Positions 489 through 39,161 of a stretch of DNA of 64,000 nucleotides are shown piece after piece. The number at the start of each line of letters is the position of its first letter. Position 1 is the first letter of the stretch. A program made the translations under genes and the position numbers. The notes beneath the pieces are model-generated. The model saw nothing but the letters and a program-made list of their open reading frames with translations, ran no database searches and was not told the origin of the DNA. Where the stretch lies: positions 1-64,000 of IMG/VR virus record IMGVR_UViG_3300025011_000030; one strand, written 5' to 3'. The DNA comes from a virus.

Positions 489-1490
489 ATGCAGGTCTGG
501 GGAACTCCTGTCTTGGCGAGTGTAGAGGAAATTATATACGATTTACGTGCAGTACTTCAGCTTAACGGTATTGATTTACTAAAAGATATAGTACGGCGTA
601 ACGATACTGGGCTGATGGTTACTTGCATTGCACATAAAGACGGACAGGAGAATAAACCCAGCTGCGGCATAAGTTTGGTTGATGTAGAACGACCTGATAA
701 GACAATACCTGCCGGCACTGTACATTGTTTTACATGCGACTACAGTGCCGATTTAGCGAAATTTGTTTCAGACTGTTTTGGGTATAAAGACGGTGGTTTA
801 TACGGTTACAAGTGGATCACTCAAAACTATGTGAATTTAGCTATAGAGTACAGGGAACCTTTGTTACTGAACATGGATAGGAAAGTTAACTCAGTACAAG
901 AGGACGTTAACCCGTTAGTTACAGAGGATGAGCTAATGAAATATAGGTTTTTTCACCCGTATATGTATGAAAGGCGGTTGACGTACAAGGTTATTCAGTA
1001 TTTTGATATCGGTTATGACCGGGAAACTGACTGCATAACTTTCCCGGTGGCAGATAAAGACGGTCGGGTACTTTTCGTGCAGCGAAGAAGTGTTAGGTCA
1101 AAATTCTACAGTTTCCCTCCAGATGATCTATCTGGAAGAACTTTATTTGGTTTAGACAAAATTTATAAAAATTTGAGTTGGATAAAGGAAGTAATCGTAA
1201 CTGAAAGTATTATTGACGCTTTAACTTGTTGGGTGTTTAGAAGGCCAGCAGTAGCTCAGTTTAGGGCCTTACCCACTGACAATCAAATAAAGCTGTTAAA
1301 AGAGCTACCTGTGCGACAAATAGTCGAGGCTTTAGACAGCGATGAAGCTGGTAGAAAAGGTGCTAATAAACTACGTCGCGGGTTAGGTTCTAATAAGCTA
1401 TTGACCCGCTTAGTATTGCCGCCGGGAATTAAGGATTTGAACGAAGCTCCTGACGAGTTTATTCAAACGGCCCAACCCATGTTATTTTAA
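489..1490 (+). CDS. DNA primase (Zn finger + TOPRIM) with C-terminal QPMLF clamp-binding motif
   Basis: CIAH...HCFTC Zn finger; VTESIIDAL and LDSDEAG TOPRIM motifs; KDLNE. Confidence 0.9.
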   Translation: MQVWGTPVLASVEEIIYDLRAVLQLNGIDLLKDIVRRNDTGLMVTCIAHKDGQENKPSCGISLVDVERPDKTIPAGTVHCFTCDYSADLAKFVSDCFGYKDGGLYGYKWITQNYVNLAIEYREPLLLNMDRKVNSVQEDVNPLVTEDELMKYRFFHPYMYERRLTYKVIQYFDIGYDRETDCITFPVADKDGRVLFVQRRSVRSKFYSFPPDDLSGRTLFGLDKIYKNLSWIKEVIVTESIIDALTCWVFRRPAVAQFRALPTDNQIKLLKELPVRQIVEALDSDEAGRKGANKLRRGLGSNKLLTRLVLPPGIKDLNEAPDEFIQTAQPMLF

Positions 1491-1511
1491 CTTAACAGTA
1501 TATTATTTTAG

Positions 1512-1548
1512 TTGACTTTTGATGTCTGATATATTATCATATAATATG
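1512..1548 (+). promoter_or_regulatory. SigA-type promoter overlapped by a palindromic operator
   Basis: TTGACT-17-TATCAT; TATATTA-N5-TAATATG at 1530-1548. Confidence 0.65.
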
Positions 1549-1580
1549 TAGAAATTTAAAAATATATTGGAGGTTTCGAA

Positions 1581-2198
1581 ATGCTTCAAACTTATAAAAA
1601 CTTTGTTGAACTTAGTAAACTTTATCCCCTTCAACCTTTAAACCTTGTTGAACTTAAAAACGTAGCAGTTGAATTTCAACTGTCAAAAGACCCTGTATTA
1701 ATTGCTGTCTGCTTTGTAAAACAGTTTAAGTTAATTATTCAGTTAACTAATAAATATCCGTTATTGGACGAGTCCGATAAGGTATCAGTTGCCCTTGAGG
1801 AACTTGAATTAGCCTTAATTGATTTTGATATAAGCCGAGGCGTAAAATTTGAAACCTTTTTTTATACATATTTACGTCGCAGGTTATACGCAGAATGCGG
1901 TAGTGCTAAGTGTAAGTGCAGAAAACCGAAGGAAGCTAATGTCAACTATGATGATATTCAGCTTAATACAACCGAGCCGGGTTACGGTGAGCTTGAGCTT
2001 TTACAAATGATTAGGACAAGTCCCGAGCTAACTACATTAGAAATAAGTTATTGTGAAATTATTATTGAAGATCCTAGTAGCTTGCAACGTGGTTCCTCTA
2101 CAGACATTGCTAAAAGGTTGGGAGTGACTTCGGCTGCCATAACTTACCTCAAAAACAAATTATCGGTCAAACTACCGAGAATATTAATGACTTCCTAG
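1581..2198 (+). CDS. Phage sigma-70-family sigma factor
   Basis: Region 2-like DFDISRGVKFETFFYTYLRRRL; region 4 HTH TDIAKRLGVTSAAITYLK. Confidence 0.75.
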   Translation: MLQTYKNFVELSKLYPLQPLNLVELKNVAVEFQLSKDPVLIAVCFVKQFKLIIQLTNKYPLLDESDKVSVALEELELALIDFDISRGVKFETFFYTYLRRRLYAECGSAKCKCRKPKEANVNYDDIQLNTTEPGYGELELLQMIRTSPELTTLEISYCEIIIEDPSSLQRGSSTDIAKRLGVTSAAITYLKNKLSVKLPRILMTS

Positions 2199-2228
2199 TT
2201 AAAATGCACGACCTTTTATTTTATATAA
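2199..2228 (+). promoter_or_regulatory. Putative phage-sigma promoter (TTAAAA...TATATAA class)
   Basis: Same two-part motif and spacing recur at about 11 intergenic sites. Confidence 0.6.
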
Positions 2229-2522: not shown

Positions 2523-3149
2523 GTGGCTAGAATTACAAGTGTTCAAGAAGCTCAGGAAAAGTTCAAAAGTAATGATTTTTTCGCTCTAAAAAATGACGGC
2601 GATTCTGCAGTAGTTAGGTTCTTGTACGAAACTGAGGACCAACTTGATTTATACTCTGTACATGAGGTCAAAATTGGAGGTAAAAAACGTTGGGTTGATT
2701 GTTTGGGTGACAGCTGCCCGTTATGCTTGTCAGGTTCCAAAGTTCAGCTTAAATTATTTCTACAGCTTGAGAGTTACTCAACTGACGGTAAAATGTCGGT
2801 ACTTACTTGGGAACGTGGGCAAAAGTTTTTACCTAGAATACAAAAAATATTGGCAGCTTACGGTACTTTATGTGACCGGAAATACGAGATTATACGTAAA
2901 GGTGAGCCCAATGACCCTGATACTGATTATAAGATCTATCCTTTAGCAAAAGACGGTAAACGTTTGGCAGAGTTATCCCAGAAGCAGGAGCTTTTAGGGC
3001 CCACAGGATTTGTGCTTGAAAAATCGGTAACTGAAATACAAGCTATTATGGACGGTACTTACAGGCTGCCGGCAGCTACAAACGATCGATCAACTGTTGA
3101 GACACCTCCAAGACAGCAAGCACCTCGTGACGACGAAGAGGTATTTTAA
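2523..3149 (+). CDS. Single-stranded DNA-binding protein (gp32-like)
   Basis: FFALKNDGDSAVVRF, His/Cys Zn ligands (CLGDSCPLC), acidic C-terminal tail DDEEVF. Confidence 0.75.
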   Translation: MARITSVQEAQEKFKSNDFFALKNDGDSAVVRFLYETEDQLDLYSVHEVKIGGKKRWVDCLGDSCPLCLSGSKVQLKLFLQLESYSTDGKMSVLTWERGQKFLPRIQKILAAYGTLCDRKYEIIRKGEPNDPDTDYKIYPLAKDGKRLAELSQKQELLGPTGFVLEKSVTEIQAIMDGTYRLPAATNDRSTVETPPRQQAPRDDEEVF

Positions 3150-3310: not shown

Positions 3311-5602
3311 GTGGCAGAACAAAAAGGTCTTTTTGCGAATTTACCGCAATTCAATAACGACATTCGTGAAAAGAATAAGGTATTAGTCGGAAAAAGTGGT
3401 AAGCCGGCTTCTTCTAAGACTCGTTCAGTGATTGCCGGAGCAGGTAAGAATAAACTTGCCGAGCGCATATCAATTCTACGACAAAATGTGAAGGATATTT
3501 TAGTTGAAGAAGGTAAATACCAATTAATTACTACAGAGGTTGAGTATTGTAACTACATGCAACAGGCTCGGGCTAATGGGTTGCTGGTGATTGATACTGA
3601 AGGAACAAGCTTAGAACCTTTGGACGATGTTTTTGTCGGACTTTGTATCGTCACTCCCGGTTTAAAACCTGCTTACGTGCCGGTACGTCATACAGATCTT
3701 AGAGGAGTTAGGTTACCTAATCAGCTCAGTGAAGAAATAGTTGGCCGGGAATTAACTTTATGTGCTGAGGCTGATACAAAGTTAGTTTTCCATTATGCTA
3801 AGTATGATATTAGAGTGATACGAAAGAGCTTGGGCGTTTACCTAGAACCGTATTGGGATACACAGATCGCTGCTTGTTTACTCAACGAAAATGAGCCTCA
3901 CGAATTAAAAAAACTGTGGTCAAAATACATAGCTAAGAATACCGATAAAAAGGATGTTCCTTTAACATTTGAAAAGCTGTTTTCCGGTATTCCGTTTAAC
4001 TATGTACCTGTTGACATTGGTTATCTGTACGCAGCCAAAGATCCGGAAATGACTTATGACTTATATGAGTATCAACGTGAATTTTTGATTGGTAGTAAGG
4101 CCGAAGCTAAAGGGTTAACTGAAGTCGGTAAAGTTATGATGAATATTGAAATGCCTCTTGTTACTGTATTGTGCGATATGGAAGATACTGGAGTTTGTAT
4201 TGATAACGACTTTGCTTCTAAATTGTCTAAAGAGTATACTGAAAAGTTACAAGTTGTAGAGAAAAAGATACTGGTAGCCTTGAAAGGATTGAATTATCAG
4301 TCGTTACCTAACGAACTTCGTGCTAAGCTGTCTAACCCAATTAATGTAGGCAGTCCAACACAGTTAGCTATTATTTTCTATGACCTTATGGGCCTTAAAA
4401 GTCCGAACAAAAAGAAGCCTCGTAATACAGATAAAGAGGCTCTTAAACACTTCAAGCAGCAAGACGGTGATTTGTTTGACTTGTTACTTGAGTATAGAAC
4501 CGTTTCTAAGTTACTTAGTACCTATATTGATAAGATGCCGAAGGTAGTTAGGACGGATACAAGTCGGCTACACGGTAACTTTAACCAGTACGGTGCTAAG
4601 ACAGGTAGGTTATCGAGCTCAGCGCCGAACTTGCAAAATATTCCATCAAAAAATAAAGAGATTCGTAAAATGTTTGTTCCCGCACCGGGTAACGTTTATG
4701 TGGGCGGTGACTTTTCGCAGGTAGAGCCTCGGTGCTTAGCAGAAGCTTCAGGCGATAAGGCTATGCAACAGGCGTATCGTGACGGGCTAGACATTTATGC
4801 TTGGATGGCGAGCGAGACTTACGGCGTGCCTTATGATCATTGCAAAGAAAATTGGCCTGACGGTACACCTCATCCCGAAGGTAAGAAGCGCCGCGATAGT
4901 TTAAAGAGTGTGTTATTAGGTATCATGTATGATCGTCAGGTTCCTAGTATTGCAATAGTTTTAGGTATTTCGACAGCCGATGCGCAACGTATTTTTGACA
5001 TGTTTTTTGAACGTTTTCCTGACATTAAACGTTTCGTAGAAGATATGAAGGAAATGGGTCATACCAAAGGATTCGTTCAAACGCTATACGGTAGAAAACG
5101 TCGGTTAACGGATCTTCAGCTACCTAAGTACGAAATCACAATGTTAAACGGTGATCCTGTAGACGACACTTCTTACCAGTATTATTACAGGGCACTAGAT
5201 AACAGTCGTTTCAATGAACGTGCCGGTATCGTGCGCGAGGCTAGAGCTCAGGGAGTTAAAATCCGAGATAACGGAGGATTTATTGCCAAGGCAGAACGTC
5301 AAGTAGTCAACAGTATCATCCAAGGAACAAGTGCCGACATAACTAAGAAGGCTATGGTCGCTATAAACCGGGATAAGAAACTTCGTGAACTTGGTGCTCG
5401 AATGTTATTAACAGTTCACGACGAAATAATTTTAGAATGCCCAATCAGCACGGCCCAACAGTGCGCATCTATTATGGAAAAACACATGTTGGCTGCTGCA
5501 GATAGAATCAACTTACCTATGTCAGTAGACGCCGAAATAAAAGACAAGTGGTATGGAAAAACAGTTGAATTTGAAACCGAGGATGAAGACGACGTTGCAT
5601 AA
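3311..5602 (+). CDS. polA: Family A DNA polymerase with 3'-5' exonuclease, no 5'-3' exonuclease, N-terminal QKGLF motif
   Basis: Exo motifs IDTE, HYAKYD, YAAKD; TGRLSSSAPNLQNIP; motif A DFSQVEPR; motif C TVHDE. Confidence 0.97.
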   Translation: MAEQKGLFANLPQFNNDIREKNKVLVGKSGKPASSKTRSVIAGAGKNKLAERISILRQNVKDILVEEGKYQLITTEVEYCNYMQQARANGLLVIDTEGTSLEPLDDVFVGLCIVTPGLKPAYVPVRHTDLRGVRLPNQLSEEIVGRELTLCAEADTKLVFHYAKYDIRVIRKSLGVYLEPYWDTQIAACLLNENEPHELKKLWSKYIAKNTDKKDVPLTFEKLFSGIPFNYVPVDIGYLYAAKDPEMTYDLYEYQREFLIGSKAEAKGLTEVGKVMMNIEMPLVTVLCDMEDTGVCIDNDFASKLSKEYTEKLQVVEKKILVALKGLNYQSLPNELRAKLSNPINVGSPTQLAIIFYDLMGLKSPNKKKPRNTDKEALKHFKQQDGDLFDLLLEYRTVSKLLSTYIDKMPKVVRTDTSRLHGNFNQYGAKTGRLSSSAPNLQNIPSKNKEIRKMFVPAPGNVYVGGDFSQVEPRCLAEASGDKAMQQAYRDGLDIYAWMASETYGVPYDHCKENWPDGTPHPEGKKRRDSLKSVLLGIMYDRQVPSIAIVLGISTADAQRIFDMFFERFPDIKRFVEDMKEMGHTKGFVQTLYGRKRRLTDLQLPKYEITMLNGDPVDDTSYQYYYRALDNSRFNERAGIVREARAQGVKIRDNGGFIAKAERQVVNSIIQGTSADITKKAMVAINRDKKLRELGARMLLTVHDEIILECPISTAQQCASIMEKHMLAAADRINLPMSVDAEIKDKWYGKTVEFETEDEDDVA

Positions 5603-5619: not shown

Positions 5620-5659
5620 AGCCTGTTAGCTTAAAAAGCTTGCAGGCTTTTTTATATAA
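5620..5659 (+). terminator. Intrinsic terminator fused with a putative phage-sigma promoter (copy 1 of a 40-nt repeat)
   Basis: AGCCTGTTAGC-TTAAAAA-GCTTGCAGGCT, then T-run and ATATAA. Confidence 0.7.
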
Positions 5660-5673: not shown

Positions 5674-6132
5674 TTGATGTATTTAATGACTGAAATTAAA
5701 CAAACTGGGCTCTTTACAGTTGAAGCTGGATTTGAATTTGATTCTGCTCACTTTTTACTCGACCATGCCGGAAAATGCCGGAACATTCACGGTCACAGGT
5801 GGAAAATCATTGTGGCTATTACATCAAACAAAGTTCAAACATCTGGTCCCGAGAATGGAATGGTGATCGACTTTAAACGGTTAAAGGGAGTTTTCAACGT
5901 ACTGATAGAAGAGCTCGATCATGTACTGATTATTCGAAAAGGTTCCATTTCTAACGAGTTATACAGAATGCTAGTCAGTCACGGGTTTATAATTCGTAAG
6001 TTTGATTTTAGCCCTACAGCTGAAAACATGGCTCAGTACATATTTACTTATATGCAGGCTGCAGGTTATGCGATTGCTCGAGTAGATGTTTACGAAACTC
6101 CTAATAATAAAGCTAGTTATAGTGAAAGGTAG
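5674..6132 (+). CDS. queD: 6-carboxy-5,6,7,8-tetrahydropterin synthase
   Basis: FDSAH, CRNIHGHRW, GMVIDF, LDH, PTAENMA, ETP. Confidence 0.96.
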   Translation: MMYLMTEIKQTGLFTVEAGFEFDSAHFLLDHAGKCRNIHGHRWKIIVAITSNKVQTSGPENGMVIDFKRLKGVFNVLIEELDHVLIIRKGSISNELYRMLVSHGFIIRKFDFSPTAENMAQYIFTYMQAAGYAIARVDVYETPNNKASYSER

Positions 6133-6143
6133 GTTGAGCCGAA

Positions 6144-6809
6144 ATGTATGTGAGCGAGAAATTTGTAAGTATTGAAGGTGAAGGTATTAACCAGGGATAT
6201 CCGAGTTTATTCGTTCGTTTCGCTGGGTGCAACTTAAACTGTAGTTTCTGCGATACCTCGTATGCACAAAGTAAGAACGGTGCAGAAGAACTTTCGCCTG
6301 AAAATGTCTTAGAGTGGGCGCTAGAGGCGAGGCTTAAAACAGGTATAAGTCGTATTACACTGACCGGCGGCGAGCCGTTACATCAGAGCTATATTGATAA
6401 ACTTATGTCGTCGTTACTGTTTTACGGGTTTGACATAAATTTAGAAACAAACGGAAGTTACAAATTAACTGAATACCGTACTATCATCCAAAACCCAATG
6501 GTTACGGTAGTGATGGATTATAAACTACCTTCCAGTGGTGAGGAAAACCGTATGGTCAAAACAAACTTGCGAATGCTTGCAGAAAAGGATGTTCTTAAAT
6601 TCGTTTGTCAAACTGAATGCGACTTGTTGGTAGCTAAGAGGATACTGAATATGTATCAGCCGGAAAGTCACGTATATTTCAGTCCTGTGTACGGTAAATT
6701 AGACCCTAAACTGATAGTCGAGTTTCTTTTGGAAAATAAGTTGCATTATTGCCGAGTACAGCTTCAGCTCCATAAACAGATTTGGGGTGCAGATAAGAGG
6801 TGTGTTTAA
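6144..6809 (+). CDS. queE: 7-carboxy-7-deazaguanine synthase (radical SAM)
   Basis: SIEGEG, RFAGCNLNCSFCDT, TGGEP, ETNGS, QLQLHK. Confidence 0.96.
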   Translation: MYVSEKFVSIEGEGINQGYPSLFVRFAGCNLNCSFCDTSYAQSKNGAEELSPENVLEWALEARLKTGISRITLTGGEPLHQSYIDKLMSSLLFYGFDINLETNGSYKLTEYRTIIQNPMVTVVMDYKLPSSGEENRMVKTNLRMLAEKDVLKFVCQTECDLLVAKRILNMYQPESHVYFSPVYGKLDPKLIVEFLLENKLHYCRVQLQLHKQIWGADKRCV

Positions 6810-7409
6810 ATGGCTACAGTGCATGAACTGAAGCAAGCTGAAATAGCTGCGCACATACGAAAGATCTTAGTACTTTTAGGAGAAGATCCCGAACGCGAAG
6901 GTTTAAAGGAAACTCCGGTCAGGGTGGCTAAAATGTTTGACGAAGTTTTTGTAGGGATTCGGTACGATAACGAACAAATTGCTTGCATGTTTAATAAAAC
7001 TTTTGACGATAACTTGGATGTTGCAGGTAACTACAACGACATGGTATTGGTAAAGGACATTTCGTTCTTCAGCTTCTGCGAGCATCATATGGCCCTTATG
7101 TATAACATGAAAGCTCATGTGGCTTATATACCTAACGGCAAAGTCATTGGGCTGAGTAAAATAGCTCGTATCGTAGATATGGTGGGCCGTCGGTTACAGA
7201 TCCAAGAACGTATTGGTACTGACATAGTCGTCATAATGGCCGCTATAACGGATTCACCTGATGTAGCTGTCATTATTGAGGGTGAGCATTCTTGCATGAC
7301 TACTCGCGGTATTAAAAAGCCGGGTACAGTCACTAGAACCAGTACCCTGCGAGGCCGGTTTATGGAGAACTCCGACCTGCGTAACGAACTTTTGTTACTA
7401 TTAAAATAA
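6810..7409 (+). CDS. folE: GTP cyclohydrolase I
   Basis: [36 protein letters not shown]. Confidence 0.97.
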
Positions 7410-7423: not shown

Positions 7424-8077
7424 TTGAATCGTAAAGGTGCGGTATGTGTTTTGTCTGGAGGTCAAGATAGTTCTACTTGTTTGTTTTGGGCTATGAAACA
7501 ATTTAAAGAAGTTCATGCAATAACTTTTGACTATGGCCAACGACATTCTTCCGAAATTGATGCAGCCATTAAGCTTGCTAAGTTAGCGAATGTGGCTAGT
7601 CACGAGGTTATTGAAATTCCTGTACTTAATAACTTAACTGTTAATGCACTAACTCGGGATATTCCAATTGATCCCGGGAAAGACGGCGAGTTACCTAATA
7701 CGTTCGTAGACGGGAGAAACCTCTTGTTTCTAACGTTTGCAGCGATACATGCTAAACAGTTAAACTGTCCTAATGTTGTAATTGGTGTATGCATGACTGA
7801 TTTCAGCGGTTATTCGGATTGTAGAAATGTATTTGTTCAAAGTGCAAACGTCACATTAAACCTTGCTATGGGTTATGATTTCGTTATTCATACTCCATTG
7901 ATGTGGTTAAATAAGGAAGAAACTTGGGAGTTAGCCGATCAGTTAGATGTTTTAGATACAATCCTTAATAATACAGTCACGTGCTATAACGGTATACCGG
8001 GTAAAGGCTGCGGCGAATGCCCTGCTTGCTTGTTAAGATCTAGAGGGTTAGTTTCGTATTTACAAAATAAAAAATAA
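7424..8077 (+). CDS. queC: 7-cyano-7-deazaguanine (preQ0) synthase
   Basis: SGGQDS, DYGQRH, TFVDGRN, YSDCR, TCY...CGECPAC. Confidence 0.97.
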   Translation: MNRKGAVCVLSGGQDSSTCLFWAMKQFKEVHAITFDYGQRHSSEIDAAIKLAKLANVASHEVIEIPVLNNLTVNALTRDIPIDPGKDGELPNTFVDGRNLLFLTFAAIHAKQLNCPNVVIGVCMTDFSGYSDCRNVFVQSANVTLNLAMGYDFVIHTPLMWLNKEETWELADQLDVLDTILNNTVTCYNGIPGKGCGECPACLLRSRGLVSYLQNKK

Positions 8078-8149: not shown

Positions 8150-8905
8150 ATGCCCGCAGTTGTTTATAAAATTAAAAACATTGTTAACGGAAGGTGCTAT
8201 GTAGGTAGTAGTGAGCATATAGCTAAACGGATATCAACCCATAAGTATTATTTAAGACACGGTATTCACGATAATGTAATTCTTCAGTGTGATTGGGATA
8301 AGTATGGCGAAGATAATTTTAAATTTTCACATGTTAAACAAGTTTTTGACATGACGCTATTGTTAACTCGCGAACAGTATTGGATGAACGAGCTTAAAGC
8401 TGTTGAGTTGGGTTATAACTTATCGCCTACTGCCGGTAACCAGTTGGGTTTTCGACATAGCGAAGAAACTAAACAAGTTATTTCTCAAAAATCTAAAGAA
8501 CGTGCACTAACTTTATTCACTGCAGAGGTTAGGGATAAAATACGTCAGTCTAAATTAGGTCACGAAGTTTCATTGGAAACCAGGCAGAAAATACGTGAAA
8601 AGTTACTCGGTAAAAGTTACATTACAGAGGAAGGTCGTCAACGTATATCAGAGAGTCACCGAGGTAAACAACGTGCGCTAGGGTATAAACATACTACTGA
8701 GGCGAAGCAGCGAATTGGTAGTCATTTTCAAGGTTCTAAGAATAGCCGTGCAAAGCTTACTGAAGCTGACGTTATAGAAATTAAAAAATGTTTGAAAAAT
8801 TATCGTCACGGTATGCTGAGTGAACTTGCTCGAAAATACGGAACAAGTACGCACAACATAGCACACATTCGCGACGGGAAGTCTTGGAAACAAATACAAG
8901 TATAG
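8150..8905 (+). CDS. GIY-YIG homing endonuclease with NUMOD3-like repeats and C-terminal HTH
   Basis: VYKIKN...CYVGSS...R; GYN; four H(S/T)EE(T/A)K..IS-type repeats. Confidence 0.88.
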   Translation: MPAVVYKIKNIVNGRCYVGSSEHIAKRISTHKYYLRHGIHDNVILQCDWDKYGEDNFKFSHVKQVFDMTLLLTREQYWMNELKAVELGYNLSPTAGNQLGFRHSEETKQVISQKSKERALTLFTAEVRDKIRQSKLGHEVSLETRQKIREKLLGKSYITEEGRQRISESHRGKQRALGYKHTTEAKQRIGSHFQGSKNSRAKLTEADVIEIKKCLKNYRHGMLSELARKYGTSTHNIAHIRDGKSWKQIQV

Positions 8906-8921: not shown

Positions 8922-9575
8922 ATGTGTAGTACGCACGTAACGCCGAGGCCGCCTGAATCTAGCTTTTCTTTACCTAACAACAGTACATGGAAAGAGCATC
9001 TAGCACCTAACTACGGTATCCAGCTTATTGAGGTTGTTGAAGACATACCTGACCAGTTAAAAGGTGACAACGTACTTTGGAGTTCGCGATGTTCACGTAC
9101 AAAGACTGGGTTAGACCAGGCGCTACCGAAAGACTTTTATGTCAGTGCAATTAACTTGAAATTTTACGAAATGATGCACCGGAATAATTTAAGGTATGGT
9201 ATCTTATCCGATAAGTACGGCATTCACATGGACGACGAGTTCTTGGACTACTATGATATACATCCAAGTGAACTCACAGGCGAACGTAAAAGGGAATTAG
9301 GGCTGATGATTGGCGAAAAGGTTCGTAATTACGGTTATGAAGAACTTATATTTTACAATACCAGCCCGCTGCAATCCCGGCCCTATTTTGAAATGTTGTG
9401 GTGGTCAGAGTTAAAGGTACATTTTATTTCGTTGATTTCGTTAGTAGAAGAGAAATACAAACTCGGTTCCGGTACTGTAAAAAAAACATTTATGTTTCCG
9501 TTATTTAACATACATGGAGCTACTACAGGTAGGATAAAAGGAGGCGAACAAAGTGCAAGACCCAGAAGTGAGTGA
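8922..9575 (+). CDS. DUF6884-like protein
   Basis: CSRTK...DFYVS...YGILSDKYG...YYD resembles the C..K/LY.S/ILSAKYG/YD pattern. Confidence 0.45.
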   Translation: MCSTHVTPRPPESSFSLPNNSTWKEHLAPNYGIQLIEVVEDIPDQLKGDNVLWSSRCSRTKTGLDQALPKDFYVSAINLKFYEMMHRNNLRYGILSDKYGIHMDDEFLDYYDIHPSELTGERKRELGLMIGEKVRNYGYEELIFYNTSPLQSRPYFEMLWWSELKVHFISLISLVEEKYKLGSGTVKKTFMFPLFNIHGATTGRIKGGEQSARPRSE

Positions 9576-10467
9576 GGAAAGTTTACCTCAGGACGTTGAA
9601 CTCGACAAGGACGGTAAGAAAATCGTCTTTAAGGTAGAACCGGGAATGAACCCACAGGATATTCTTTGTACAACTTATCAAATGAGGAATTTTTTCAGGC
9701 AATTCGCAGACGGCTTTTTTAGTAACTTGGACGTGATGAACTATATTCAGCATCATAAGGCTGCTCTACTAGCGAAGAAGGACATGGTGCTTGTAGATGT
9801 GTGTTGTGGCCGGTCGTTGATGCTTCCGTTACTTAGATATCATGCCAAAACCATTAAAAGTTATACCGGCGTAGACATATGCGAAAAGAACATTCGCGAG
9901 GCTAAAAGTCGCTCAGGTATTCGTAAATTAGAGGAAGACGAATATCAAACCTACTACCCGTTCAACGTTAACTGGATACAGTCAAACGTGGCTGAAATGG
10001 CTCAGCATATTGAGCATAGGTCAGTTGACTTTATAATTTACACGTCGGCTATTGAGCACATGCATAAGGATCACGGTTATCAGTCCTTAATCGAGTGCTA
10101 TAAAATTATGTCTGATACTGGGTTTATGTTTCTAAGCTGCCCAAATACGCCTGGAAACGGTTATAATACTCAGTACGCTGCTCACGTTTACGAGTGGGGT
10201 TACGATGAGTTGAAGCAGTCTCTCGACGAAATTGGGTTTCAAATCGATAGCGAGGTTGGCCTTGTAGCAGGTGCTCGGGAGCTTGAGGACATGTACAAGC
10301 GAATGGGCGGGGAGTTGCACTCCTTCTACCTTAAAATGAAACAGTACATGCCCACAGCTTGGTTGACTGCTTTTATGGCCGTACCTTTCCCGGAAATGGC
10401 TAAAGAAGTACTGTTCATTGTCACTAAAAAGACAAATAAAGGGCCGAAACAGAAGAGCCTATTTTAA
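9553..10467 (+). CDS. Class I SAM-dependent methyltransferase with C-terminal QKSLF motif
   Basis: LVDVCCGRS motif I, YTGVDI, DFIIYTSAIEHM, LSCPN. Confidence 0.85.
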   Translation: MQDPEVSEESLPQDVELDKDGKKIVFKVEPGMNPQDILCTTYQMRNFFRQFADGFFSNLDVMNYIQHHKAALLAKKDMVLVDVCCGRSLMLPLLRYHAKTIKSYTGVDICEKNIREAKSRSGIRKLEEDEYQTYYPFNVNWIQSNVAEMAQHIEHRSVDFIIYTSAIEHMHKDHGYQSLIECYKIMSDTGFMFLSCPNTPGNGYNTQYAAHVYEWGYDELKQSLDEIGFQIDSEVGLVAGARELEDMYKRMGGELHSFYLKMKQYMPTAWLTAFMAVPFPEMAKEVLFIVTKKTNKGPKQKSLF

Positions 10468-11003: not shown

Positions 11004-11043
11004 AGCCTGTCAGCTTAAAAAGCTCGCAGGCTTTTTTATATAA
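11004..11043 (+). terminator. Intrinsic terminator fused with a putative phage-sigma promoter (copy 2 of the 40-nt repeat)
   Basis: 38/40 identical to 5620-5659. Confidence 0.7.
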
Positions 11044-11060: not shown

Positions 11061-11954
11061 TTGATGTTTAAATTGTATTACGCCGGTACTCAGGAAGCTT
11101 GTGAATATAAGCTGGTTGAAAACGGTAACTTGCGGCTCGTTAGTTATGCAGATTCTAAGAAAACAATTAACCAATGGATTGAAAGGGAAACTCCTGTTTT
11201 TATGGATTCAGGTGCATATTCGGCATTCACTCGTAACGCCTATATTGACATTGATTTTTACATAGACTATGTTAATTTCCTTGACGAATATTTGATTTGT
11301 TTTGCCCAACTTGACGTTATACCAGGCGAACCGGGGAAACCTAAAACTCAGGCTCAACTGCTAAAATCGGCCGAAGATACTTGGCAGAATTATTTGTATA
11401 TGCGAGAAAGAGTTAAAAACGTAGATAAGTGCTTACCTGTATTTCATCGAGGTTCGGACTTTATGTTTTTAAACAGGTTACTAGCTTTCGAGCCTAAAAT
11501 TGATTATATGGCCCTTGGAGCTTTAGTGGGTGCTTCGTCTGTTGAGCGAGATATTTGGCTAACTAAGGTGTTTAAAGTTATTGCAGCGAGCCCTAACCCG
11601 AATGTTAAAGTTCATGCCTTCGGTATGACGAGTTTAAAGCTGTTAGAGCGCTTTCCGTTTTACAGTGCAGACTCGACGTCATGGATAATGACTGGAAGTA
11701 ACGGGTTGATAATGACTCAGTTCGGTAATCTGTTAGTTTCAGGCAAGGCTACAAAAGATTCGCGCCATATCAACAATTTATCAAAGGAGCATTTTCAGGC
11801 AGTTAAAACATATGTTGAGGAAAAGGGTTTTACTTTGGAAGGACTAGCTGAAAAATACATTGACCGCATTCTACTGAATGTCGCTTACCTGACAGACTGG
11901 TCTAGAAGTTATCAGTATAAACCGAAACAGGTAGCTCAAAATCGTTTATTTTAA
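11061..11954 (+). CDS. dpdA: TGT/DpdA-like transglycosylase, paralogue 1 (ends QNRLF)
   Basis: FMDSGAYS, AQLDVI, LPVFH, ALGAL, VHAFG, SADSTSW; next to preQ0 synthesis genes. Confidence 0.8.
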   Translation: MMFKLYYAGTQEACEYKLVENGNLRLVSYADSKKTINQWIERETPVFMDSGAYSAFTRNAYIDIDFYIDYVNFLDEYLICFAQLDVIPGEPGKPKTQAQLLKSAEDTWQNYLYMRERVKNVDKCLPVFHRGSDFMFLNRLLAFEPKIDYMALGALVGASSVERDIWLTKVFKVIAASPNPNVKVHAFGMTSLKLLERFPFYSADSTSWIMTGSNGLIMTQFGNLLVSGKATKDSRHINNLSKEHFQAVKTYVEEKGFTLEGLAEKYIDRILLNVAYLTDWSRSYQYKPKQVAQNRLF

Positions 11955-11970: not shown

Positions 11971-12828
11971 ATGTTTAACTTTTACTTTACCGGAGGTGTA
12001 CCGGCCGAGGCCGACGACCTTGTAGGCGATAACGTTCTTTTAAGTTATGCTACAGACAGGAGAGGAATCATAAAGCGATACGACCGAGGCCGGTCAACTT
12101 TTGTTGACTCAGGAGCTTTTACTGCCTACACGAAAGGTATAAATGTTGATATTGACGAATACGTCAATTTCGTTAATGCATATGACGAATATATTTCGTA
12201 TTTTGCTCAACTTGATGTGATACCCGGCAGTTACGGGCTATCTGCCGAACAAACGACTGATATCACTTTGAAGAATTATTTGTATATGTTAAGTCGTACT
12301 AAAAGCCCTTGTAAGTTAATCCCAGTATTTCATCGTGGTTCTAATTTAAACTATTTAAAGCAGTTGATTCATACAGGTACAGAGTATATAGGTCTTGGGG
12401 CAATGGCTAAAGTTCCTGAAAAAGAACGTGCGATTTGGCTGACAGAAGTTTTTAAACTAATACCGTCACAAGTTAAAGTTCATGCATTTGGTCTTACTAG
12501 CTTTGACCTACTGGAGCGGTTTCCGTTTTACAGCGCAGACTCGACGTCGTGGTTGATTTATGCGGTGAATGGTCGTTTAATAACTGATTTTGGAAATTAT
12601 ATTGTTATTTCACAAGGTAGAAAAAAGCTTCGGTGCCATGTTGAGCACAAAGGTGAGCTCATAAAAGATACTTTGTATGATTTTATACGAGAGCGCGGCT
12701 TTGAACCTGAACAGCTAATAAACGACCCAAAATCTCGGTTGTTATGGAATATAAAATACATGCTTGAGTGGGTCAACAAATATCAGTATAAACCTGCTAA
12801 ACAAGTCAGTCAAACTAAGTTGTTTTGA
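11971..12828 (+). CDS. dpdA: TGT/DpdA-like transglycosylase, paralogue 2 (ends QTKLF)
   Basis: FVDSGAFT, AQLDVI, IPVFH, GLGAM, VHAFG, SADSTSW. Confidence 0.8.
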   Translation: MFNFYFTGGVPAEADDLVGDNVLLSYATDRRGIIKRYDRGRSTFVDSGAFTAYTKGINVDIDEYVNFVNAYDEYISYFAQLDVIPGSYGLSAEQTTDITLKNYLYMLSRTKSPCKLIPVFHRGSNLNYLKQLIHTGTEYIGLGAMAKVPEKERAIWLTEVFKLIPSQVKVHAFGLTSFDLLERFPFYSADSTSWLIYAVNGRLITDFGNYIVISQGRKKLRCHVEHKGELIKDTLYDFIRERGFEPEQLINDPKSRLLWNIKYMLEWVNKYQYKPAKQVSQTKLF

Positions 12829-12840: not shown

Positions 12841-13722
12841 ATAGGTTTCAACTTATATTTAGCTTCAAGTATGCCAAAATATATAGACGAGTATATTCAA
12901 CAGCACGGAGATAACGTGTTGTTAAGTTATGCAATAAATAAAGCCGACATACGAAAAAGGTTCAATCAAGGTCGGCCTACATTTGTTGACTGTGGTGCTT
13001 ACTTCGCCTATACAAAAGGTATTTACCTTGACATTGACGAGTACATAGATTTCGTTAATGCTTACAATGAATATGTAAGTATGTTCGCTCAACTTGACGT
13101 AATACCCGAAAAAACGGGTCAAGACGTTACTGCAGCAGAAACCACATGGTTAAATTTCCTGTATATGTATTCGCGGGTTAAAAGTCCACACAAATTATTA
13201 CCCGTATTTCATGCCGGTTCTTCTTTAACAGTTTTAGTTAAAATTCTTAAGTTTAAGCCTAAAATTGATTACATGGCCCTTGGAGCTTTAGTGGGTATGG
13301 GAACTAACGACCGTAAAAACTATATTGAAAAGGTGTTTAAGATAATTCAAAATAGCTCTAATCCTACTATCAAAGTACATGCATTTGGAATGACTGATCT
13401 TAGGATTTTAGAAATGTTTCCATTTGAAAGTGCAGATTCGGCTTCTTGGAAAATTAACGCGGGTAACGGTGAAATGTTGACTGACTTTGGCTATACAGCA
13501 GTTAGTTCCGGTAAAATAGGTCAACCTAATCACATTTTTAAACGGTCTAAGGTTGACCAAGAAAAGTTTATACGTTACGTCGAAGCACAGAGTGATGAAC
13601 CGTTTGACATACTACGTGAAAGCTATAAACTTCGACTTCTGTAGAATGTTAAATATTTCATAAATTGGGCTAAAAACTACAAACGAGTCAGTAAAAACGT
13701 GACGCAGACCGAGCTGTTTTGA
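12841..13722 (+). pseudogene. dpdA: TGT/DpdA-like paralogue 3 with ATA start and in-frame TAG at 13642; frame continues to QTELF-stop
   Basis: FVDCGAYF, AQLDVI, VHAFG, SADSASW; LRLL*NVKYF aligns with SRLLWNIKYM of paralogue 2. Confidence 0.78.
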
Positions 13723-23626: not shown

Positions 23627-23634
23627 ACTGCGAG

Positions 23635-24435: not shown

Positions 24436-25330
24436 GCAGCTGAAAAAAGAACTTGATTCTGGTAAGGTTCGACCTTTTTACATTTTCACAGGTGAAGAAA
24501 AGGAAGTACTTAGGAAGTACATTAAGCGCATAAGTCCCGATGTACAGACAGCTCAGTCCTTAGCCAGTATTGCCGGTAAGTTAAGCAGTCGCGGCCTGTT
24601 TGCCCGTAAACAGACTTTCGTTATACATAACGATAAAGAGGCCGTCAAGGTTGAGTTGAGCACGTTATTGAAGCTCATAGGTAACAATACGGTAATACTT
24701 GTGTACGACAGTATTGACGGACGAATTAAGTTTTTCAAAGAAGCTAAGGACTATATCACCGAGTTTAAAAAGTTCACCGAAGCTCAATTAGCTGCAACGG
24801 TTAAACGTCTTTTAGGAACAGATGTAGAACCTAAAATATCTTTGATGTTGAGTTTGTACTGTGGTAACGATGTCGCCCGGTTAGAACTTGAATGTCATAA
24901 ATTAAGAAGCTTAGGGTTACCTATAACCGAACAGTTAGTTGACGAGTTAGTGATACCGCCGGTCGAAGACGAGATTTTTAAAATGACCGAAAGTATTGCT
25001 AAAAAGGACGCCGTTATGGCTTGGTGCTTATACGATAACCTTCGGCAGTTGAAGGAAAGTCCTATTAAAATGATTAGTATACTCTATACCAAGTTTCGCG
25101 AAATATTTTTGGTACAGAGTATGCTTGACAGGGAAAATACAGAGGTATGCTCTAAGACAGGGTTGGTTTTTTGGCAGGTTAATAAAGCCCGTGAGTTAGC
25201 TAACAGGTTCAGCCTGACTGAGCTACTAAGGCACTTAAAATCCATTCAAAAAGCCGAGGTAGATATAAAGACAGGTCGTATTGAGGATATAGTTGCTTGG
25301 GAAAGCTTGTTGCTTAGCATTCTAAAATAA
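24425..25330 (+). CDS. holA: Clamp loader delta subunit
   Basis: YIFTGEE, SRGLF (LF clamp contact), DGR..F, LELECHKL, IFKM, DIKTG. Confidence 0.82.
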   Translation: MEFKQLKKELDSGKVRPFYIFTGEEKEVLRKYIKRISPDVQTAQSLASIAGKLSSRGLFARKQTFVIHNDKEAVKVELSTLLKLIGNNTVILVYDSIDGRIKFFKEAKDYITEFKKFTEAQLAATVKRLLGTDVEPKISLMLSLYCGNDVARLELECHKLRSLGLPITEQLVDELVIPPVEDEIFKMTESIAKKDAVMAWCLYDNLRQLKESPIKMISILYTKFREIFLVQSMLDRENTEVCSKTGLVFWQVNKARELANRFSLTELLRHLKSIQKAEVDIKTGRIEDIVAWESLLLSILK

Positions 25331-30129: not shown

Positions 30130-30548
30130 CGGTTTTAGGTTATTTTGACGGCGCTAACAAAGGTCAACCAGGCCCTGCCGGGATAGGTGCTCTTATAATC
30201 AAGGACGGAGTTATGATATGGGAAAAGGCGGAGTATATCGGTCTTAAAACTAATAACGAAGCTGAGTATATGGCTTTGTTAGCTGTACTCAAACAAGCTG
30301 TATATCTTGGTATTAAAGAAATAACTATTCGCGGCGATAGTTTATTAGTAGTTAATCAGGTCAATCGAAAGTGGAAGTGTGAAACGCCACATTTAAAACC
30401 TTTGTTGAAACAAGCTTGGGAATATTTAGCATATATTCCTCGTTATAAGCTAAAATGGATTCCTCGTACCCAAAATACTTATGCCGATGCTCTTAGTAAA
30501 CGAGGCCGCATTGAGTTAGCACCTAAGGAGGTTGGCGAGTTTGCCTGA
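30126..30548 (+). CDS. rnhA: Ribonuclease HI
   Basis: FDGA...PGPAG, TNNEAEY, GDS.LVVNQ, WIPR.QN..AD. Confidence 0.93.
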   Translation: MTVLGYFDGANKGQPGPAGIGALIIKDGVMIWEKAEYIGLKTNNEAEYMALLAVLKQAVYLGIKEITIRGDSLLVVNQVNRKWKCETPHLKPLLKQAWEYLAYIPRYKLKWIPRTQNTYADALSKRGRIELAPKEVGEFA

Positions 30549-32721
30549 AATTAAAGTATTGAAGAGGGATGGAAAAACATTAGCTCCATGGGAACCGGAG
30601 AAAATAACTAGAGCTGTAGAAAAAGCTTTTAAGGCTGTTAAAGTCCCAATCACTAAAGATAAATTAAACGTTATTACTTTTAGGGTGAATAGTACATTAG
30701 CGAGCGTTAATGCAATTAAGCCCAAGACTCGCCCACTTGTTATTGAAATTGAGTCCATTCAAAATACTGTTGAATATACTTTACGTGATATGGGTTACTG
30801 GGAAGTGGCTCGGGCTTATATTGTATACCGAGAACAAAGGGCTGATATTCGCCGAGGTAAGAATTTATTGCTAGACGTCATACAGGAAATTGATATTGAA
30901 GCCACCAAAGATAATGCTAATGTAGGTAACACCATGGCTGGAAAGGTATTACAAATCTCAGAGGCTGCCTCGTCTTATTTTTATAGTAAGCGGGTTATCC
31001 CTGAAGTATTTAGTACAGCTCACGATTCGGGTGATATTCACATACACGATAAAGCCTGGTACGGTAAAGGAATTAATTGTTGTCAAATACCGTATACCAA
31101 ATTAGCTCGTGAGGGATTTAATACGGGTCACGGTTTTATTCGGCCGGCACATAGTTTAAAGACGGCTGCTATGCACGCTAGTATTATTATTCAAGCTAAC
31201 CAGAACGAGATGTACGGAGGTCAGAGCTACCCTGATTTTGATAATCAGTTTGTCGCTACAGGTGTTCTTGACTATCAGCGAGGTAAAATACGTCGTGACT
31301 TACAATACGGTGCCGGCCTGGCAGGTAAGCAACTTGAAGAATTAAATACTACAGATGTTGACGTACAGGTAGAAAAAATACTTGACCACAAAGGTTTTCA
31401 AGCTATGGAAGCTCTAATTTATAACCTCAATACAATGCATAGCCGAGGAGGAGGACAAATTCCGTTTTCCTCGATAAATATTGGTGACGTACAAAGTGAA
31501 GATGCTGCTAAAGTTTGTGAATGGATTTTGAAAGCTTTTGAGGCAGGTTTAGGGAAGGGTGAGCAACCTATATTCCCTAATATTTGTTTCAAAATTAAAG
31601 CTGGAGTTAACATGTATCCAACAGACCCATATTATCTATTGTTTAAGTTAGCTCAACGGGTATGTGCGAAACGACTTAACCCGAGCTGGGTTTTCTGTGA
31701 TAGTAGTTTCAACAAAGGTGGCGACATTTCGTATATGGGTTGCAGAACTCGTGTAGTAGCCGATCGTCACGGAGAGTCTACTACAATAGAGCGAGGTAAC
31801 ATCTCATTTACTACTGAAAATTTACCTCGTTTAGCGCTAAAAGCTCTAAATAAGTTTCCTACTGACCAGCAGGCGAGGATTGAGTACTTCTTTGAACTGC
31901 ATAATAACATGTTGGAGCTCATTGTGCAGCAACTCCTACACAGGTTTCACTATATTTGTAATACGTTGAAAGCCAAAGATTTTCCATTCTTACTGGGTCA
32001 GCATTTATACCGGGATGCTGAGTTGTTGAAACCTGATGACAGTATTTACATGGCAGCTCGGCACGGTACTCTTACGTTAGGCTTTATTGGTCTAGCCGAA
32101 TGTCTGACAGCCCTTGTGGGTAGTCATCACGGTGAGGACGAGAATGCTTTATTTTTAGGACATAAGATTATATCAAGAATTCGGGGAGTAGCTGATGCTG
32201 CTTGTAACCAGTATGACCTTAATTTTTCAGTTATTGCTACGCCGGCCGAAGGGTTATCCGGTCGGTTCACTAAGCTGGATAAGGCCCACTTTGGACATGT
32301 AGTTGGAGTGACAGATAAGGACTATTATACAAATAGTTATCATTTGCCGGTAAGTTACAATACAAGTTTCCAACACAAAATAGCTACAGAAGGGCCGTTT
32401 CATAAGTACTGTAACGGAGGTCATATAAGCTATGTAGAGCTTCAAAGTATGCCTCCTGAATACAATTTGGAAGTTGTAGAACAAATCGTAATGAGTATGG
32501 CTGCCAGTGATATGGGCTATGCTGCAATTAACTATCCAGTTGATTATTGTAACTCTTGTGGTACATCTAATAACGTTATACCTCACAGTCAGCCGTGCCC
32601 TATTTGTGGGGAAATTGAAAACATTGACAGAGTTAGACGAATCACAGGTTACCTTAGTACATTAAACCGTTTTAATGATGCGAAAGTAACTGAGGAAAGC
32701 GACCGTAAAGTTCACGTATAA
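30532..32721 (+). CDS. nrdD: Anaerobic (class III) ribonucleotide reductase with ATP cone
   Basis: VLKRDG ATP cone, NCC, MGCRT, ATPAEG, YTNS, CxxC...CxxC, RRITGYL. Confidence 0.96.
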   Translation: MASLPEIKVLKRDGKTLAPWEPEKITRAVEKAFKAVKVPITKDKLNVITFRVNSTLASVNAIKPKTRPLVIEIESIQNTVEYTLRDMGYWEVARAYIVYREQRADIRRGKNLLLDVIQEIDIEATKDNANVGNTMAGKVLQISEAASSYFYSKRVIPEVFSTAHDSGDIHIHDKAWYGKGINCCQIPYTKLAREGFNTGHGFIRPAHSLKTAAMHASIIIQANQNEMYGGQSYPDFDNQFVATGVLDYQRGKIRRDLQYGAGLAGKQLEELNTTDVDVQVEKILDHKGFQAMEALIYNLNTMHSRGGGQIPFSSINIGDVQSEDAAKVCEWILKAFEAGLGKGEQPIFPNICFKIKAGVNMYPTDPYYLLFKLAQRVCAKRLNPSWVFCDSSFNKGGDISYMGCRTRVVADRHGESTTIERGNISFTTENLPRLALKALNKFPTDQQARIEYFFELHNNMLELIVQQLLHRFHYICNTLKAKDFPFLLGQHLYRDAELLKPDDSIYMAARHGTLTLGFIGLAECLTALVGSHHGEDENALFLGHKIISRIRGVADAACNQYDLNFSVIATPAEGLSGRFTKLDKAHFGHVVGVTDKDYYTNSYHLPVSYNTSFQHKIATEGPFHKYCNGGHISYVELQSMPPEYNLEVVEQIVMSMAASDMGYAAINYPVDYCNSCGTSNNVIPHSQPCPICGEIENIDRVRRITGYLSTLNRFNDAKVTEESDRKVHV

Positions 32722-36687: not shown

Positions 36688-36742
36688 CAGAGTAAGTTAA
36701 TATTAAGTTAAGTATGGAAAACCATCCTTAACTTTTTTTATT

Positions 36743-36773
36743 CTTAAAAATGCAGTCGCTTTTTTTATATATT
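36743..36773 (+). promoter_or_regulatory. Putative phage-sigma promoter
   Basis: CTTAAAAA...TTTTATATATT. Confidence 0.6.
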
Positions 36774-36807
36774 AAATTAAAACTGTACAGAAGTAGGTGG
36801 TTATTTT

Positions 36808-38200
36808 TTGACGAACTATGAGGATTTTTTAGAAAGTAAGAAGTTGTCTGTGGTCAGTTGCGGGTTTTCTGTAAATGAGTACAGTATTAATCCTAGTTTA
36901 AAATTGTTTTAGTCAGACATTGTTAGGTGGGCCCTCTACAAAAAGGAAAAGCTGCTATATTCGCCGGTACAGGGTTAGGTAAGACTTTAATGCAGTTAGA
37001 ATGGGCAAACAAAATACATCAAACTACGAACGGTGATATTCTTATTTTAGCGCCGTTGGCAGTGAGTCGTCAAACGGTGCGAGAAGGGATTAAATTTGGA
37101 ATAGAAGTTACGAGTTGTCGTTCTCAGGCCGATGTAGTACCGGGAGTTAATATTACGAACTACGAAATGTTGCATATGTTTGAATTAGACAAATTTATTG
37201 CAGTAGTTTTAGACGAATCGTCTATTCTTAAATCTTTTACGGGAAAAGTTAGGACTCAAATAATTGAAGCATTTAAACAAACTCCATACAGGTTGGCCTG
37301 TACAGCCACCCCGGCACCTAACGACCTGATGGAGCTTTGCAACCATGCCGAGTTCCTGGGCGTTATGACAAGAGCAGAGATGTTGGCTACATGGTTCGTC
37401 CATGACGGGGTGATACGTCTAAATGGCGACTGAAGGGTCATGTGACAGAGAGTTTTTGGATTTGGGTTGCTTCATGGGCTGTCATGTTACAGAACCCTTC
37501 AGATTTAGGTTACGAGGACAGTGAATACATGTTACCTCCACTTAACATTATACCTATTGTAGTACCTGTAAAAGGACGTAAAGCTACGACAATGACAGCT
37601 CGCAGGGAAGCTCGTAAAGCCAGTCTAGACCAACGGGTAGCTGCTTGTGCCAAAATTGTCAACTCTTCCAATGATTTGTCTTGGATTATATGGTGCGAAT
37701 TAAACGAAGAGAGCAGTAAATTAACGTCGGCTATTACAGGTGCAGTTGAAATTGCAGGAAGTCACGATGCACTGTATAAAGAAAAGAGTATGGAGGATTT
37801 CTCCATTGGTAACATAAGCCGTATTGTCAGAAAGCCTAAAATATGTGGGTACGGTATGAACTTTCAAATCTGTCACAATATGGCATTTGTAGGACTGTCG
37901 GATAGTTTTGAAAAGTATTATCAAGCAATTAGGCGCTGCTGGAGATTTGGACAGTTGAATCCTGTTAACGTGTATGTCATAACATCTTCATTAGAGGGTG
38001 CAGTAGTTAATAACATTAAACGTAAAGAAGCTGAGTTCAACAAAATGTTATCGGGAATGATAGCAGCAACTCAGGAAATAACTAAATCAAATATACAAAA
38101 TACTATTAAGGAAAGTTTACAATATATTCCGGTAGCGCCAATGTTACTACCGAGCTGGATTAAAACAGAACAGGAGTTTTGTAATGACAAACGTTATTGA
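36808..38200 (+). pseudogene. SF2 (SNF2-like) helicase with three lesions
   Basis: TAG at 36910; frameshifts at about 36934 and 37407-37410; GTGLGKT, LDESS, TATP, QAIRRCWRFGQ. Confidence 0.88.
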
Positions 38201-39161
38201 TCGAGTATTAGAATCACGATATGCATTATACCACGGCGACTGTATTGAAGTACTGAAAGGCATCCCAAGTAACTCAGTACACTATTCAATATTTTCACCT
38301 CCATTTGCGAACCTATATACGTACAGTAATAGTGACCGGGATATGGGTAACTGTGTTAATGATGCTCAGTTTGTGCAGCACATGAACTTTTTAGCTCCAG
38401 AAGTTTATCGGGTAATAATGCCGGGTAGGTTGGTTTCAGTACATTGTATGGACTTACCGTTGATGAAATCAAAAGACGGTATGTTAGGTTTAAAAGATTT
38501 CCCGGCTACTCTTAGAGAAATATTCGAAGCTGCAGGCTTTATTTACCACTCAAAAGTTACAATATGGAAAGACCCTGTCGTAGAGATGCAAAGAACAAAG
38601 TCACTCGGTTTATTACACAAGCAGCTCAAGAAAGATAGCTGCCGTAGTCGTCAAGGTACGCCGGATTATATCATAACTTTGTATAAGCCGGGTGACAATC
38701 CGGAACCTGTTACACATACCAATGAAAGTTTCCCTGTCACCATATGGCAGCAGTATGCTAGCCCTGTCTGGATGGATATTCGGCAAGGCGATACGTTACA
38801 GCGACAAAGTGCCCGGGATGAGCACGATGAAATGCACATTTGTCCTCTTCAACTTGAAGTGATACGTCGCTGTATAGCTTTATGGACGAATGAAACTGAC
38901 ATTGTACTAGACCCTTTCAGTGGTATTGGAAGCACAGGACACGAGGCTGTGAAATACGGTCGTAATTACGTGGGGATTGAGTTAAAGACAAGTTATTTCA
39001 AACAGTCTACAGGAAATCTTAAAATGGCTGTTAATGAGTATAACAAGCTGCAGCAAGACCCGTTGAAGTTACTGACTATTTTAGAAGGTTACGAGCAACA
39101 TGTGAATTCTCAATCAACTAAAATATATAAGGTAACTAGAAATCAGCGAACTTTATTTTAA
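38184..39161 (+). CDS. Beta-class amino (N4-C/N6-A) DNA methyltransferase with C-terminal QRTLF motif
   Basis: GDC, FSPPF, HICPLQL, LDPFSGIGST, GIELK. Confidence 0.9.
   Translation: MTNVIDRVLESRYALYHGDCIEVLKGIPSNSVHYSIFSPPFANLYTYSNSDRDMGNCVNDAQFVQHMNFLAPEVYRVIMPGRLVSVHCMDLPLMKSKDGMLGLKDFPATLREIFEAAGFIYHSKVTIWKDPVVEMQRTKSLGLLHKQLKKDSCRSRQGTPDYIITLYKPGDNPEPVTHTNESFPVTIWQQYASPVWMDIRQGDTLQRQSARDEHDEMHICPLQLEVIRRCIALWTNETDIVLDPFSGIGSTGHEAVKYGRNYVGIELKTSYFKQSTGNLKMAVNEYNKLQQDPLKLLTILEGYEQHVNSQSTKIYKVTRNQRTLF

Follow-up and report, generated by a model that had tools for sequence, protein, structure and literature searches.

Bacterial proteins that bind the beta sliding clamp carry a pentapeptide (QL[SD]LF) or hexapeptide (QLxLxL) motif; such clients include Pol II, III, IV and V, as well as delta, Hda, MutS and MutL (Dalrymple 2001, cited in PMC9690074). 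In eukaryotes, the maintenance methyltransferase DNMT1 is brought to the replication fork by a PCNA-binding motif (PMC9690074). The 7-deazaguanine systems of phages 9g, CAjan, phiSM and VH7D combine FolE, QueD, QueE and QueC with DpdA, an enzyme of tRNA-guanine transglycosylase fold, and the insertion is termed 'post-replicative' with no mention of a clamp (PMC6884629, PMC10516641). This simple designation of phage hypermodification leaves unexplained how transglycosylases find their sites within minutes, up to complete replacement in some phages. Here we analyzed a 64,000-nucleotide stretch of viral DNA (the window), which is the start of the 85,650-bp IMG/VR record IMGVR_UViG_3300025011_000030 (complete according to CheckV) and encodes the FolE/QueD/QueE/QueC set, three DpdA paralogues (DpdA1 to DpdA3) and a DnaN-type clamp. 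Conservation and structural modeling indicate that terminal peptides ending in Leu-Phe (LF) on DpdA1, DpdA2, two methyltransferases and the family A polymerase PolA are probably clamp-binding motifs.

The candidate clients resemble the bacterial ones in the consensus, the terminal or disordered location of the motif and the modeled site (the cleft separating domains II and III, together with the C-terminal strand of the clamp). They differ in that they are base-modifying enzymes and a family A polymerase, that the clamp is encoded by the phage, that the motif has a basic flank, and that relatives often have another residue in place of the Q at position -5. With DNMT1-PCNA the predicted arrangement would share a DNA methyltransferase tethered to a sliding clamp and modifying new DNA during replication; PCNA, however, is a trimer, the motif there is a PIP (PCNA-interacting protein) box and all enzymes are unrelated, making the likeness an analogy and not homology. 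Unlike the 9g, CAjan, phiSM and VH7D systems, the present locus has three tandem DpdA paralogues, no queF, and both a DUF6884 protein and a class I methyltransferase. PMC6884629 and PMC10516641 do not discuss the adjacency of dpdA and clamp genes or the LF tails, both of which we see in 9g-like, Vibrio, Stenotrophomonas and Rhizobium phages. Full-text literature searches, which covered few subscription journals, returned no paper tying the beta clamp to DpdA or to DNA methyltransferases of bacteria or phages, which is not proof of absence, and none describing the dpdA-clamp-polymerase arrangement of cultured phages; the initial annotation of the window likewise knew of no account of clamp-coupled 7-deazaguanine insertion.

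That annotation had attributed a terminal QxxLF to seven proteins. The motif was present at the N-terminus of PolA and, as an exact C-terminal Q-x-x-L-F, in five proteins (the primase, the S-adenosylmethionine (SAM) methyltransferase, DpdA1, DpdA2 and the N6/N4 DNA methyltransferase); in DpdA3, the QTELF lies beyond an in-frame TAG. Based on the composition of the whole 85.6-kb genome, 0.015 such C-termini are expected among 120 open reading frames (ORFs). The five seen correspond to a Poisson P of ~1e-11, or ~2e-9 with the two DpdA paralogues counted once; chance is excluded by the latter value, and the five ends are distributed over four unrelated folds. No terminal LF tail was found on QueD, QueE, FolE or QueC, and the statement that the motif terminates no Que enzyme or structural protein was true of the C-termini. 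The clamp gene follows the DpdA triad, and the clamp loader genes dnaX, delta' and delta are encoded further downstream, as had been noted (Table 1).

DpdA1 shares 34.5% identity with an annotated DpdA of a Nonagvirus phage (E 7e-31, tblastn), and a Foldseek search with its AlphaFold2 model (predicted local distance difference test (pLDDT) score 92.5) retrieved bacterial and archaeal tRNA-guanine transglycosylases (E ~4e-8, probability 1.0). The genes for preQ0 synthesis (QueD, QueE, FolE and QueC) lie directly upstream. An [LMIF]F end was present in 65 of 68 DpdA homologues from 58 related IMG/VR loci. Alignment of 33 sequences (~40% identity) revealed that D49, D85 and D204 are invariant, as is the last L, and that the last F is kept in 32, whereas the linker of 10-12 residues preceding the LF is variable. 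In the model, the last helix spans residues 266-282, and residues 292-297 have a pLDDT below 50. Since the LF is kept while the linker drifts, and the tail appears disordered beyond the last helix, the DpdA end looks like a short linear motif carried by a flexible terminus. An origin of the three relatives lacking the LF end (L054, L057 and L060) from clamp-less phages was considered and rejected: a 9g-type clamp, invisible to PF00712, is encoded by L057 and L060, and L054 gave only a weak match (E 0.003). Single-protein scans with the L057 and L060 DpdAs returned only a few loci, too few for statistics.

The phrog_947 match of the phage DnaN extends over residues 1-344 and supports a three-domain beta-clamp architecture, and the DnaN profile matches solved Firmicute clamps (3e-20). 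When DpdA1 residues 262-297 were co-folded with the dimeric DnaN, a check suggested by the initial annotation, the end of the tail was placed in the canonical cleft with an interaction score (ipSAE) of 0.67, against 0.01 for the best control. Of solved complexes, 58 of 80 attain the score mark that it passed, as do 2 of 110 mismatched pairs; the result may, however, owe something to a resemblance to solved clamp-peptide structures, of which there are many, and the use of our own alignments lies outside the calibration. Contact agreement between runs was at least 53% and partner pLDDT at least 43. Only the last eight residues of DpdA1 (290-297) contacted the clamp in the model, touching DnaN residues 166-171 (TDGVKM), 232, 237, 267-271, 286, 309, 311, 336-337 and 348-355, a set that comprises the C-terminal strand and the cleft where domains II and III meet. 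We take TDGVKM to be the equivalent of T172-L177 of E. coli beta, in the canonical cleft. Positions 169, 171, 237, 267, 348 and 352 stay hydrophobic in 29 phage clamps. In the model, the acidic C-terminal tail found on the clamps of this clade makes contact with the basic motif flank, which hints at a matched pair.

The start of PolA, MAEQKGLF, is a proposed clamp hook with good comparative support. Among 30 distinct N-termini of PolA relatives, 22 have LF within the first five residues, in the form M-x(1-2)-LF (MALF, MSLF, MSGLF, MKGLF), and six more have SF, LL or FF at the same place. Outside the window, a 135-residue ORF (whole-genome positions 72888-73295) with no Pfam or PHROG family match starts with MQISLF and in this resembles the N-terminal clamp motif of Hda.

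The SAM methyltransferase yielded only weak UbiG/UbiE-like matches in NCBIfam and had no relative among solved structures. In its relatives (n=80), the catalytic domain closes with ..LFIV[RK]K, and seven of them have KK(S/V)(K/N)KLF added after this domain, an addition restricted to a single clade. A dnaN gene was found in six of the seven records with the LF-extended form (the seventh contig is cut off) and in 0 of 32 records with tail-less relatives, 15 of which are at least 90% complete; one relative ending in ..KRLL comes from a record with a weak DnaN match. The N6/N4 methyltransferase, which matched N6_N4_Mtase (PF01555) with 76.3 bits against a curated cut-off of 26.7 and gave partial adenine-methyltransferase-like matches in NCBIfam, showed a different distribution. 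[LMI]F occurs in the last 12 residues of 43 of its 67 distinct relatives, compared with 7% of internal windows, and C-terminal ends such as ..QLTLF, ..QATLF and ..DLFDAA are widespread in phages and proviruses. Most of the relatives with such ends come from records lacking dnaN. The comparison of homologues with and without a phage dnaN thus divided the two enzymes: the tail of the SAM methyltransferase tracks the gene, but the N6/N4 methyltransferase keeps its LF without it. Such orphan N6/N4 methyltransferases of phages and prophages may, judging by their ends, ride on the host beta clamp.

Clamp docking of the primase, which had been listed among the seven proteins with the motif, is doubtful. 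An [LMIF]F end was found in only 14 of 34 primase relatives, mostly as acidic ..E[IL]F (..NLQELF, ..LEEIF), and these tails are nearer to the acidic terminal-Phe tails of the single-strand DNA-binding protein (SSB; ..DDEEVF) and the DnaB-like helicase (..GAGEELF; whole-genome positions 83918-85270) of the phage. The primase QPMLF is a probable member of this second, acidic class, distinct from the basic clamp tails, and probably serves another partner than the clamp. Copies of the SSB C-terminal tip were also seen on non-SSB proteins, namely a superfamily 2 helicase ending in ..DFDDDIPF (Escherichia phage ChristophMerian, 2605-4608) and a VirE-like protein ending in ..DEDDVPF (Cellulophaga phage phi38:2, 2665-3891).

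The ORF of DpdA3 ends at a TAG 25 codons ahead of QTELF, with the frame unchanged. These 25 codons keep homology to the paralogues, in which W or L pairs with the TAG. An assembly error was ruled out by the identity of the region in Logan contigs from four metagenome runs of two studies. We likewise rejected the possibility that TAG is recoded to an amino acid: TAG closes 12 other ORFs of at least 100 residues in the window, without sensible extension, and no tRNA genes were found in the phage genome. Given the normal use of TAG as a stop at other places in the window and its identity across the four runs, the TAG of DpdA3 is a genuine nonsense codon that is fixed. The predicted QTELF tail is produced only upon read-through, and its docking is conditional on this; the codon either arose recently by nonsense mutation or marks a site of read-through, which would give tailed and tail-less isoforms.

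Among cultured phages, the nearest relative is Flasso, a Bacillus phage (MZ357961), which has the same order of helicase, primase, SSB-like protein, PolA, Que genes, DpdA, DnaN, Cas4-like nuclease, RecA, DnaX, delta' and delta. Its DpdA is 48% identical and ends in QGKLF, its PolA starts with MFQNSLF, and it has its own DnaN and three-subunit loader; it differs in the presence of QueF, a single DpdA and a primase without an LF end (..PLPIK). The dpdA-clamp-polymerase order recurs in cultured phages of unrelated lineages, with a divergent clamp that is undetected by Pfam: in Rhizobium phage RHEph05 (DpdA end ..EQRLF, polymerase start ..TTGLFW), Nonagvirus ChristophMerian (..LQDLFDE, ..AIGFFW), Vibrio phage vB_VpaS_CHI (..TQGLF, ..ALGLFW) and a Stenotrophomonas phage (..QMELF, ..AIGMFW). 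Metagenomic relatives have ends of ..KGFFE, ..GFKL and ..QELY beside the same type of clamp. In two actinophages, no clamp of either type was detected, and their DpdA is without an LF-type tail. Among relatives of the present phage, [KR][KR]xLF ends were also found on proteins encoded next to dpdA or dnaN: glycosyltransferase-like proteins, DUF6884 proteins (..RKLF in loci L030, L031 and L040), an Nlig-Ia protein and a 175-residue protein whose [KR]xLF members match no Pfam or PHROG family. Cellulophaga phage phi38:2, which carries mdPreQ1 (PMC10516641), has a short, tail-less DpdA and a DnaN gene. Two neighboring proteins of this phage (6269-6922 and 7642-8106) have LF ends, a DpdM-like protein (PF03692) with QVNLF and a ParB-like neighbor of DpdA with SVNLF.

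In the mechanism that we propose, the DnaX/delta/delta' loader would set the phage DnaN ring onto primed DNA, PolA would take the ring as its processivity factor, and guanine-to-7-deazaguanine transglycosylases and methyltransferases would dock in the same hydrophobic cleft. The docked enzymes would then act on freshly replicated phage DNA, making the clamp a 'tool-belt' for base modification. Real binding, coupling to the fork and a preference for the phage over the host clamp are what we infer from these patterns. Docking is the best explanation for the ends of DpdA1, DpdA2, PolA and the SAM methyltransferase and is plausible for the N6/N4 methyltransferase. The earlier proposal that the modifying enzymes dock on the phage clamp is supported for DpdA1, DpdA2 and the SAM methyltransferase (conservation, co-occurrence with dnaN, and the DpdA1 co-fold); for DpdA3 it is conditional on read-through of the stop, and the motif of the N6/N4 methyltransferase is independent of a phage clamp. 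Exclusive use of the phage clamp, or protection of host DNA, is far less likely than docking itself.

Besides the caveat attached to the co-fold, several observations weigh against clamp docking. DpdA relatives do not conserve the Q at position -5, with R, K or S being common there, and the cleft residues of phage clamps are no more conserved than the protein average. A tree of the SAM methyltransferase relatives, made by a quick method, requires only one or two changes to account for the link between tail and dnaN, which thus represents one natural experiment and not many. Of the 23 larger records with LF-tailed N6/N4 methyltransferases, 19 lack dnaN; a phage clamp is therefore not needed for this motif to persist, and in the case of this enzyme the notion of spared host DNA finds no support. 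Furthermore, a Vibrio phage DpdA2 puts preQ1 into plasmid DNA in E. coli without a phage clamp (PMC10516641), so tethering is not essential to catalysis in every DpdA.

The wide occurrence of Q..LF, QxTLF and DLFD-type ends on N6/N4 methyltransferases of phages and proviruses without dnaN, together with the fit of the window motifs to the general bacterial consensus, would also agree with tails that target the host beta clamp, or either clamp without preference, in which case the enzymes would ride on whichever clamp is loaded, without sparing host DNA. We regard this as unlikely, since the tail of the SAM methyltransferase is confined to phages with a dnaN of their own, and the basic motif flanks and the acidic clamp tail of the clade suggest, in the model, a matched pair. 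Docking on another hub of the replisome (PolA, the DnaB helicase or SSB), in the manner of the C-terminal Phe tails of T7 gp2.5 and gp4, draws on the second tail class, as the ends of SSB, DnaB and the primase relatives imply that a terminal Phe serves more than one contact. The tails of the modification enzymes are basic and not acidic, however, PolA itself bears an LF motif, the type of motif shifts with the type of clamp across lineages, and the co-fold puts the DpdA1 tail in the clamp cleft with controls at or below 0.01, which together make this explanation improbable. The view that the shared ends are chance or functionless inherited sequence draws on the paralogy of the three DpdA genes, whose tails count as one event, and on the Q..LF inside the folded parts of QueD (QTGLF at residue 10) and DnaX. 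This is scarcely credible given the Poisson value with paralogues collapsed, the retention of the terminal LF across the 58 DpdA loci while the linker drifts, and the fact that two enzyme families with no relation to each other have the tail appended outside the fold.

With clamp docking as the preferred reading, a wider one can be put forward tentatively and with somewhat less than even confidence: docking on the phage clamp may be a general but unrecognized trait of phages that modify their DNA with 7-deazaguanines or methyl groups, 9g and the studied Queuovirinae among them. The clamp tail and the client peptides would then co-evolve as a private code restricting modification to replicating phage DNA. 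The pairs of such a code would be the acidic DnaN tail with [KR]xLF in the present clade, and 9g-type clamps with QDLF or GFF-type ends. A code of this kind could account for some DpdAs being inactive when expressed alone in E. coli. If the clamp tether is true, phage hypermodification would gain a mechanism in which a sliding platform keeps the enzymes at work at the fork; bacterial viruses would have their own counterpart of DNMT1-PCNA, and DNA-modifying enzymes would join the clients of the beta clamp. It would also offer practical hints, namely co-expression of the cognate clamp and loader for DpdA reconstitution and the use of tail peptides as probes. The idea is directly testable because cultured phages (Flasso, 9g-like Bas phages, Vibrio and Stenotrophomonas phages) share the gene order and the tails.

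Table 1 Positions of the replication and DNA modification genes in the window.
Feature	Position	Strand	Supporting match
DNA primase (Toprim), tail QPMLF at 1473-1487	489-1490	+	Pfam Toprim_2, phrog_47
Single-strand DNA-binding protein, tail ..DDEEVF	2523-3149	+	phrog_14578, E 3e-42
Family A DNA polymerase PolA with 3'-5' exonuclease domain, start MAEQKGLF (3320-3334)	3311-5602	+	Pfam DNA_pol_A 7e-94
QueD	5674-6132	+	Pfam PTPS
QueE	6144-6809	+	Pfam Radical_SAM
FolE	6810-7409	+	Pfam GTP_cyclohydroI
QueC	7424-8077	+	Pfam QueC
GIY-YIG/NUMOD3 homing-endonuclease gene, between queC and the DUF6884 gene	8150-8905	+	
DUF6884 protein, without LF tail	8922-9575	+	Pfam match under cut-off
Class I SAM methyltransferase, tail KQKSLF, motif 10450-10464	9553-10467	+	Pfam Methyltransf_23/11/25
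DpdA paralogue 1, tail QNRLF at 11937-11951	11061-11954	+	phrog_887 1e-54
DpdA paralogue 2, tail QTKLF at 12811-12825	11971-12828	+	phrog_887 4e-49, alignments
DpdA paralogue 3, TAG 13642-13644 in frame, QTELF 13705-13719, then TGA	12871-13722	+	Homology to paralogues
DnaN-type beta sliding clamp	13825-14910	+	Pfam DNA_pol3_beta N- and C-terminal domains (PF00712, PF02768), phrog_947
DnaX	22526-23626	+	Pfam clamp-loader families (DNA_pol3_delta2, DNA_pol3_gamma3, DNA_pol3_delta_C) across 22526-25330
delta'	23635-24435	+	Same Pfam clamp-loader set across 22526-25330
delta	24401-25330	+	Same Pfam clamp-loader set across 22526-25330
N6/N4 (amino) DNA methyltransferase, tail QRTLF at 39144-39158	38184-39161	+	Pfam N6_N4_Mtase 4e-21

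All genes of the phage are on the + strand. Near-identical contigs were found in sediment and groundwater metagenomes, and megablast of the locus against GenBank phages gave no match. The phage encodes an anaerobic ribonucleotide reductase NrdD (30532-32721) and an NrdG-like activase fragment (51824-52063); these genes, together with an origin in groundwater and sediment, make an anaerobic host probable.

The deazaguanine locus lacks queF and has a DUF6884 protein and a class I methyltransferase of the small-molecule type, and for these reasons the final modified base may be an undescribed preQ0 derivative. The SAM methyltransferase was considered as DpdM, the dPreQ1 methyltransferase of CxxxCxxCC/YkgJ fold, and rejected, being a class I Rossmann enzyme (Methyltransf_23/11/25) and not PF03692, in a phage without queF. 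A 40-bp element occurs in two copies (5620-5659 and 11004-11043; 38 of 40 bases identical), which flank the entire Que/DUF6884/methyltransferase block between PolA and DpdA1. It consists of a GC stem (AGCCTG..CAGGCT) and a T-run, resembling an intrinsic terminator, and its pairing suggests a cassette or a common regulatory element.

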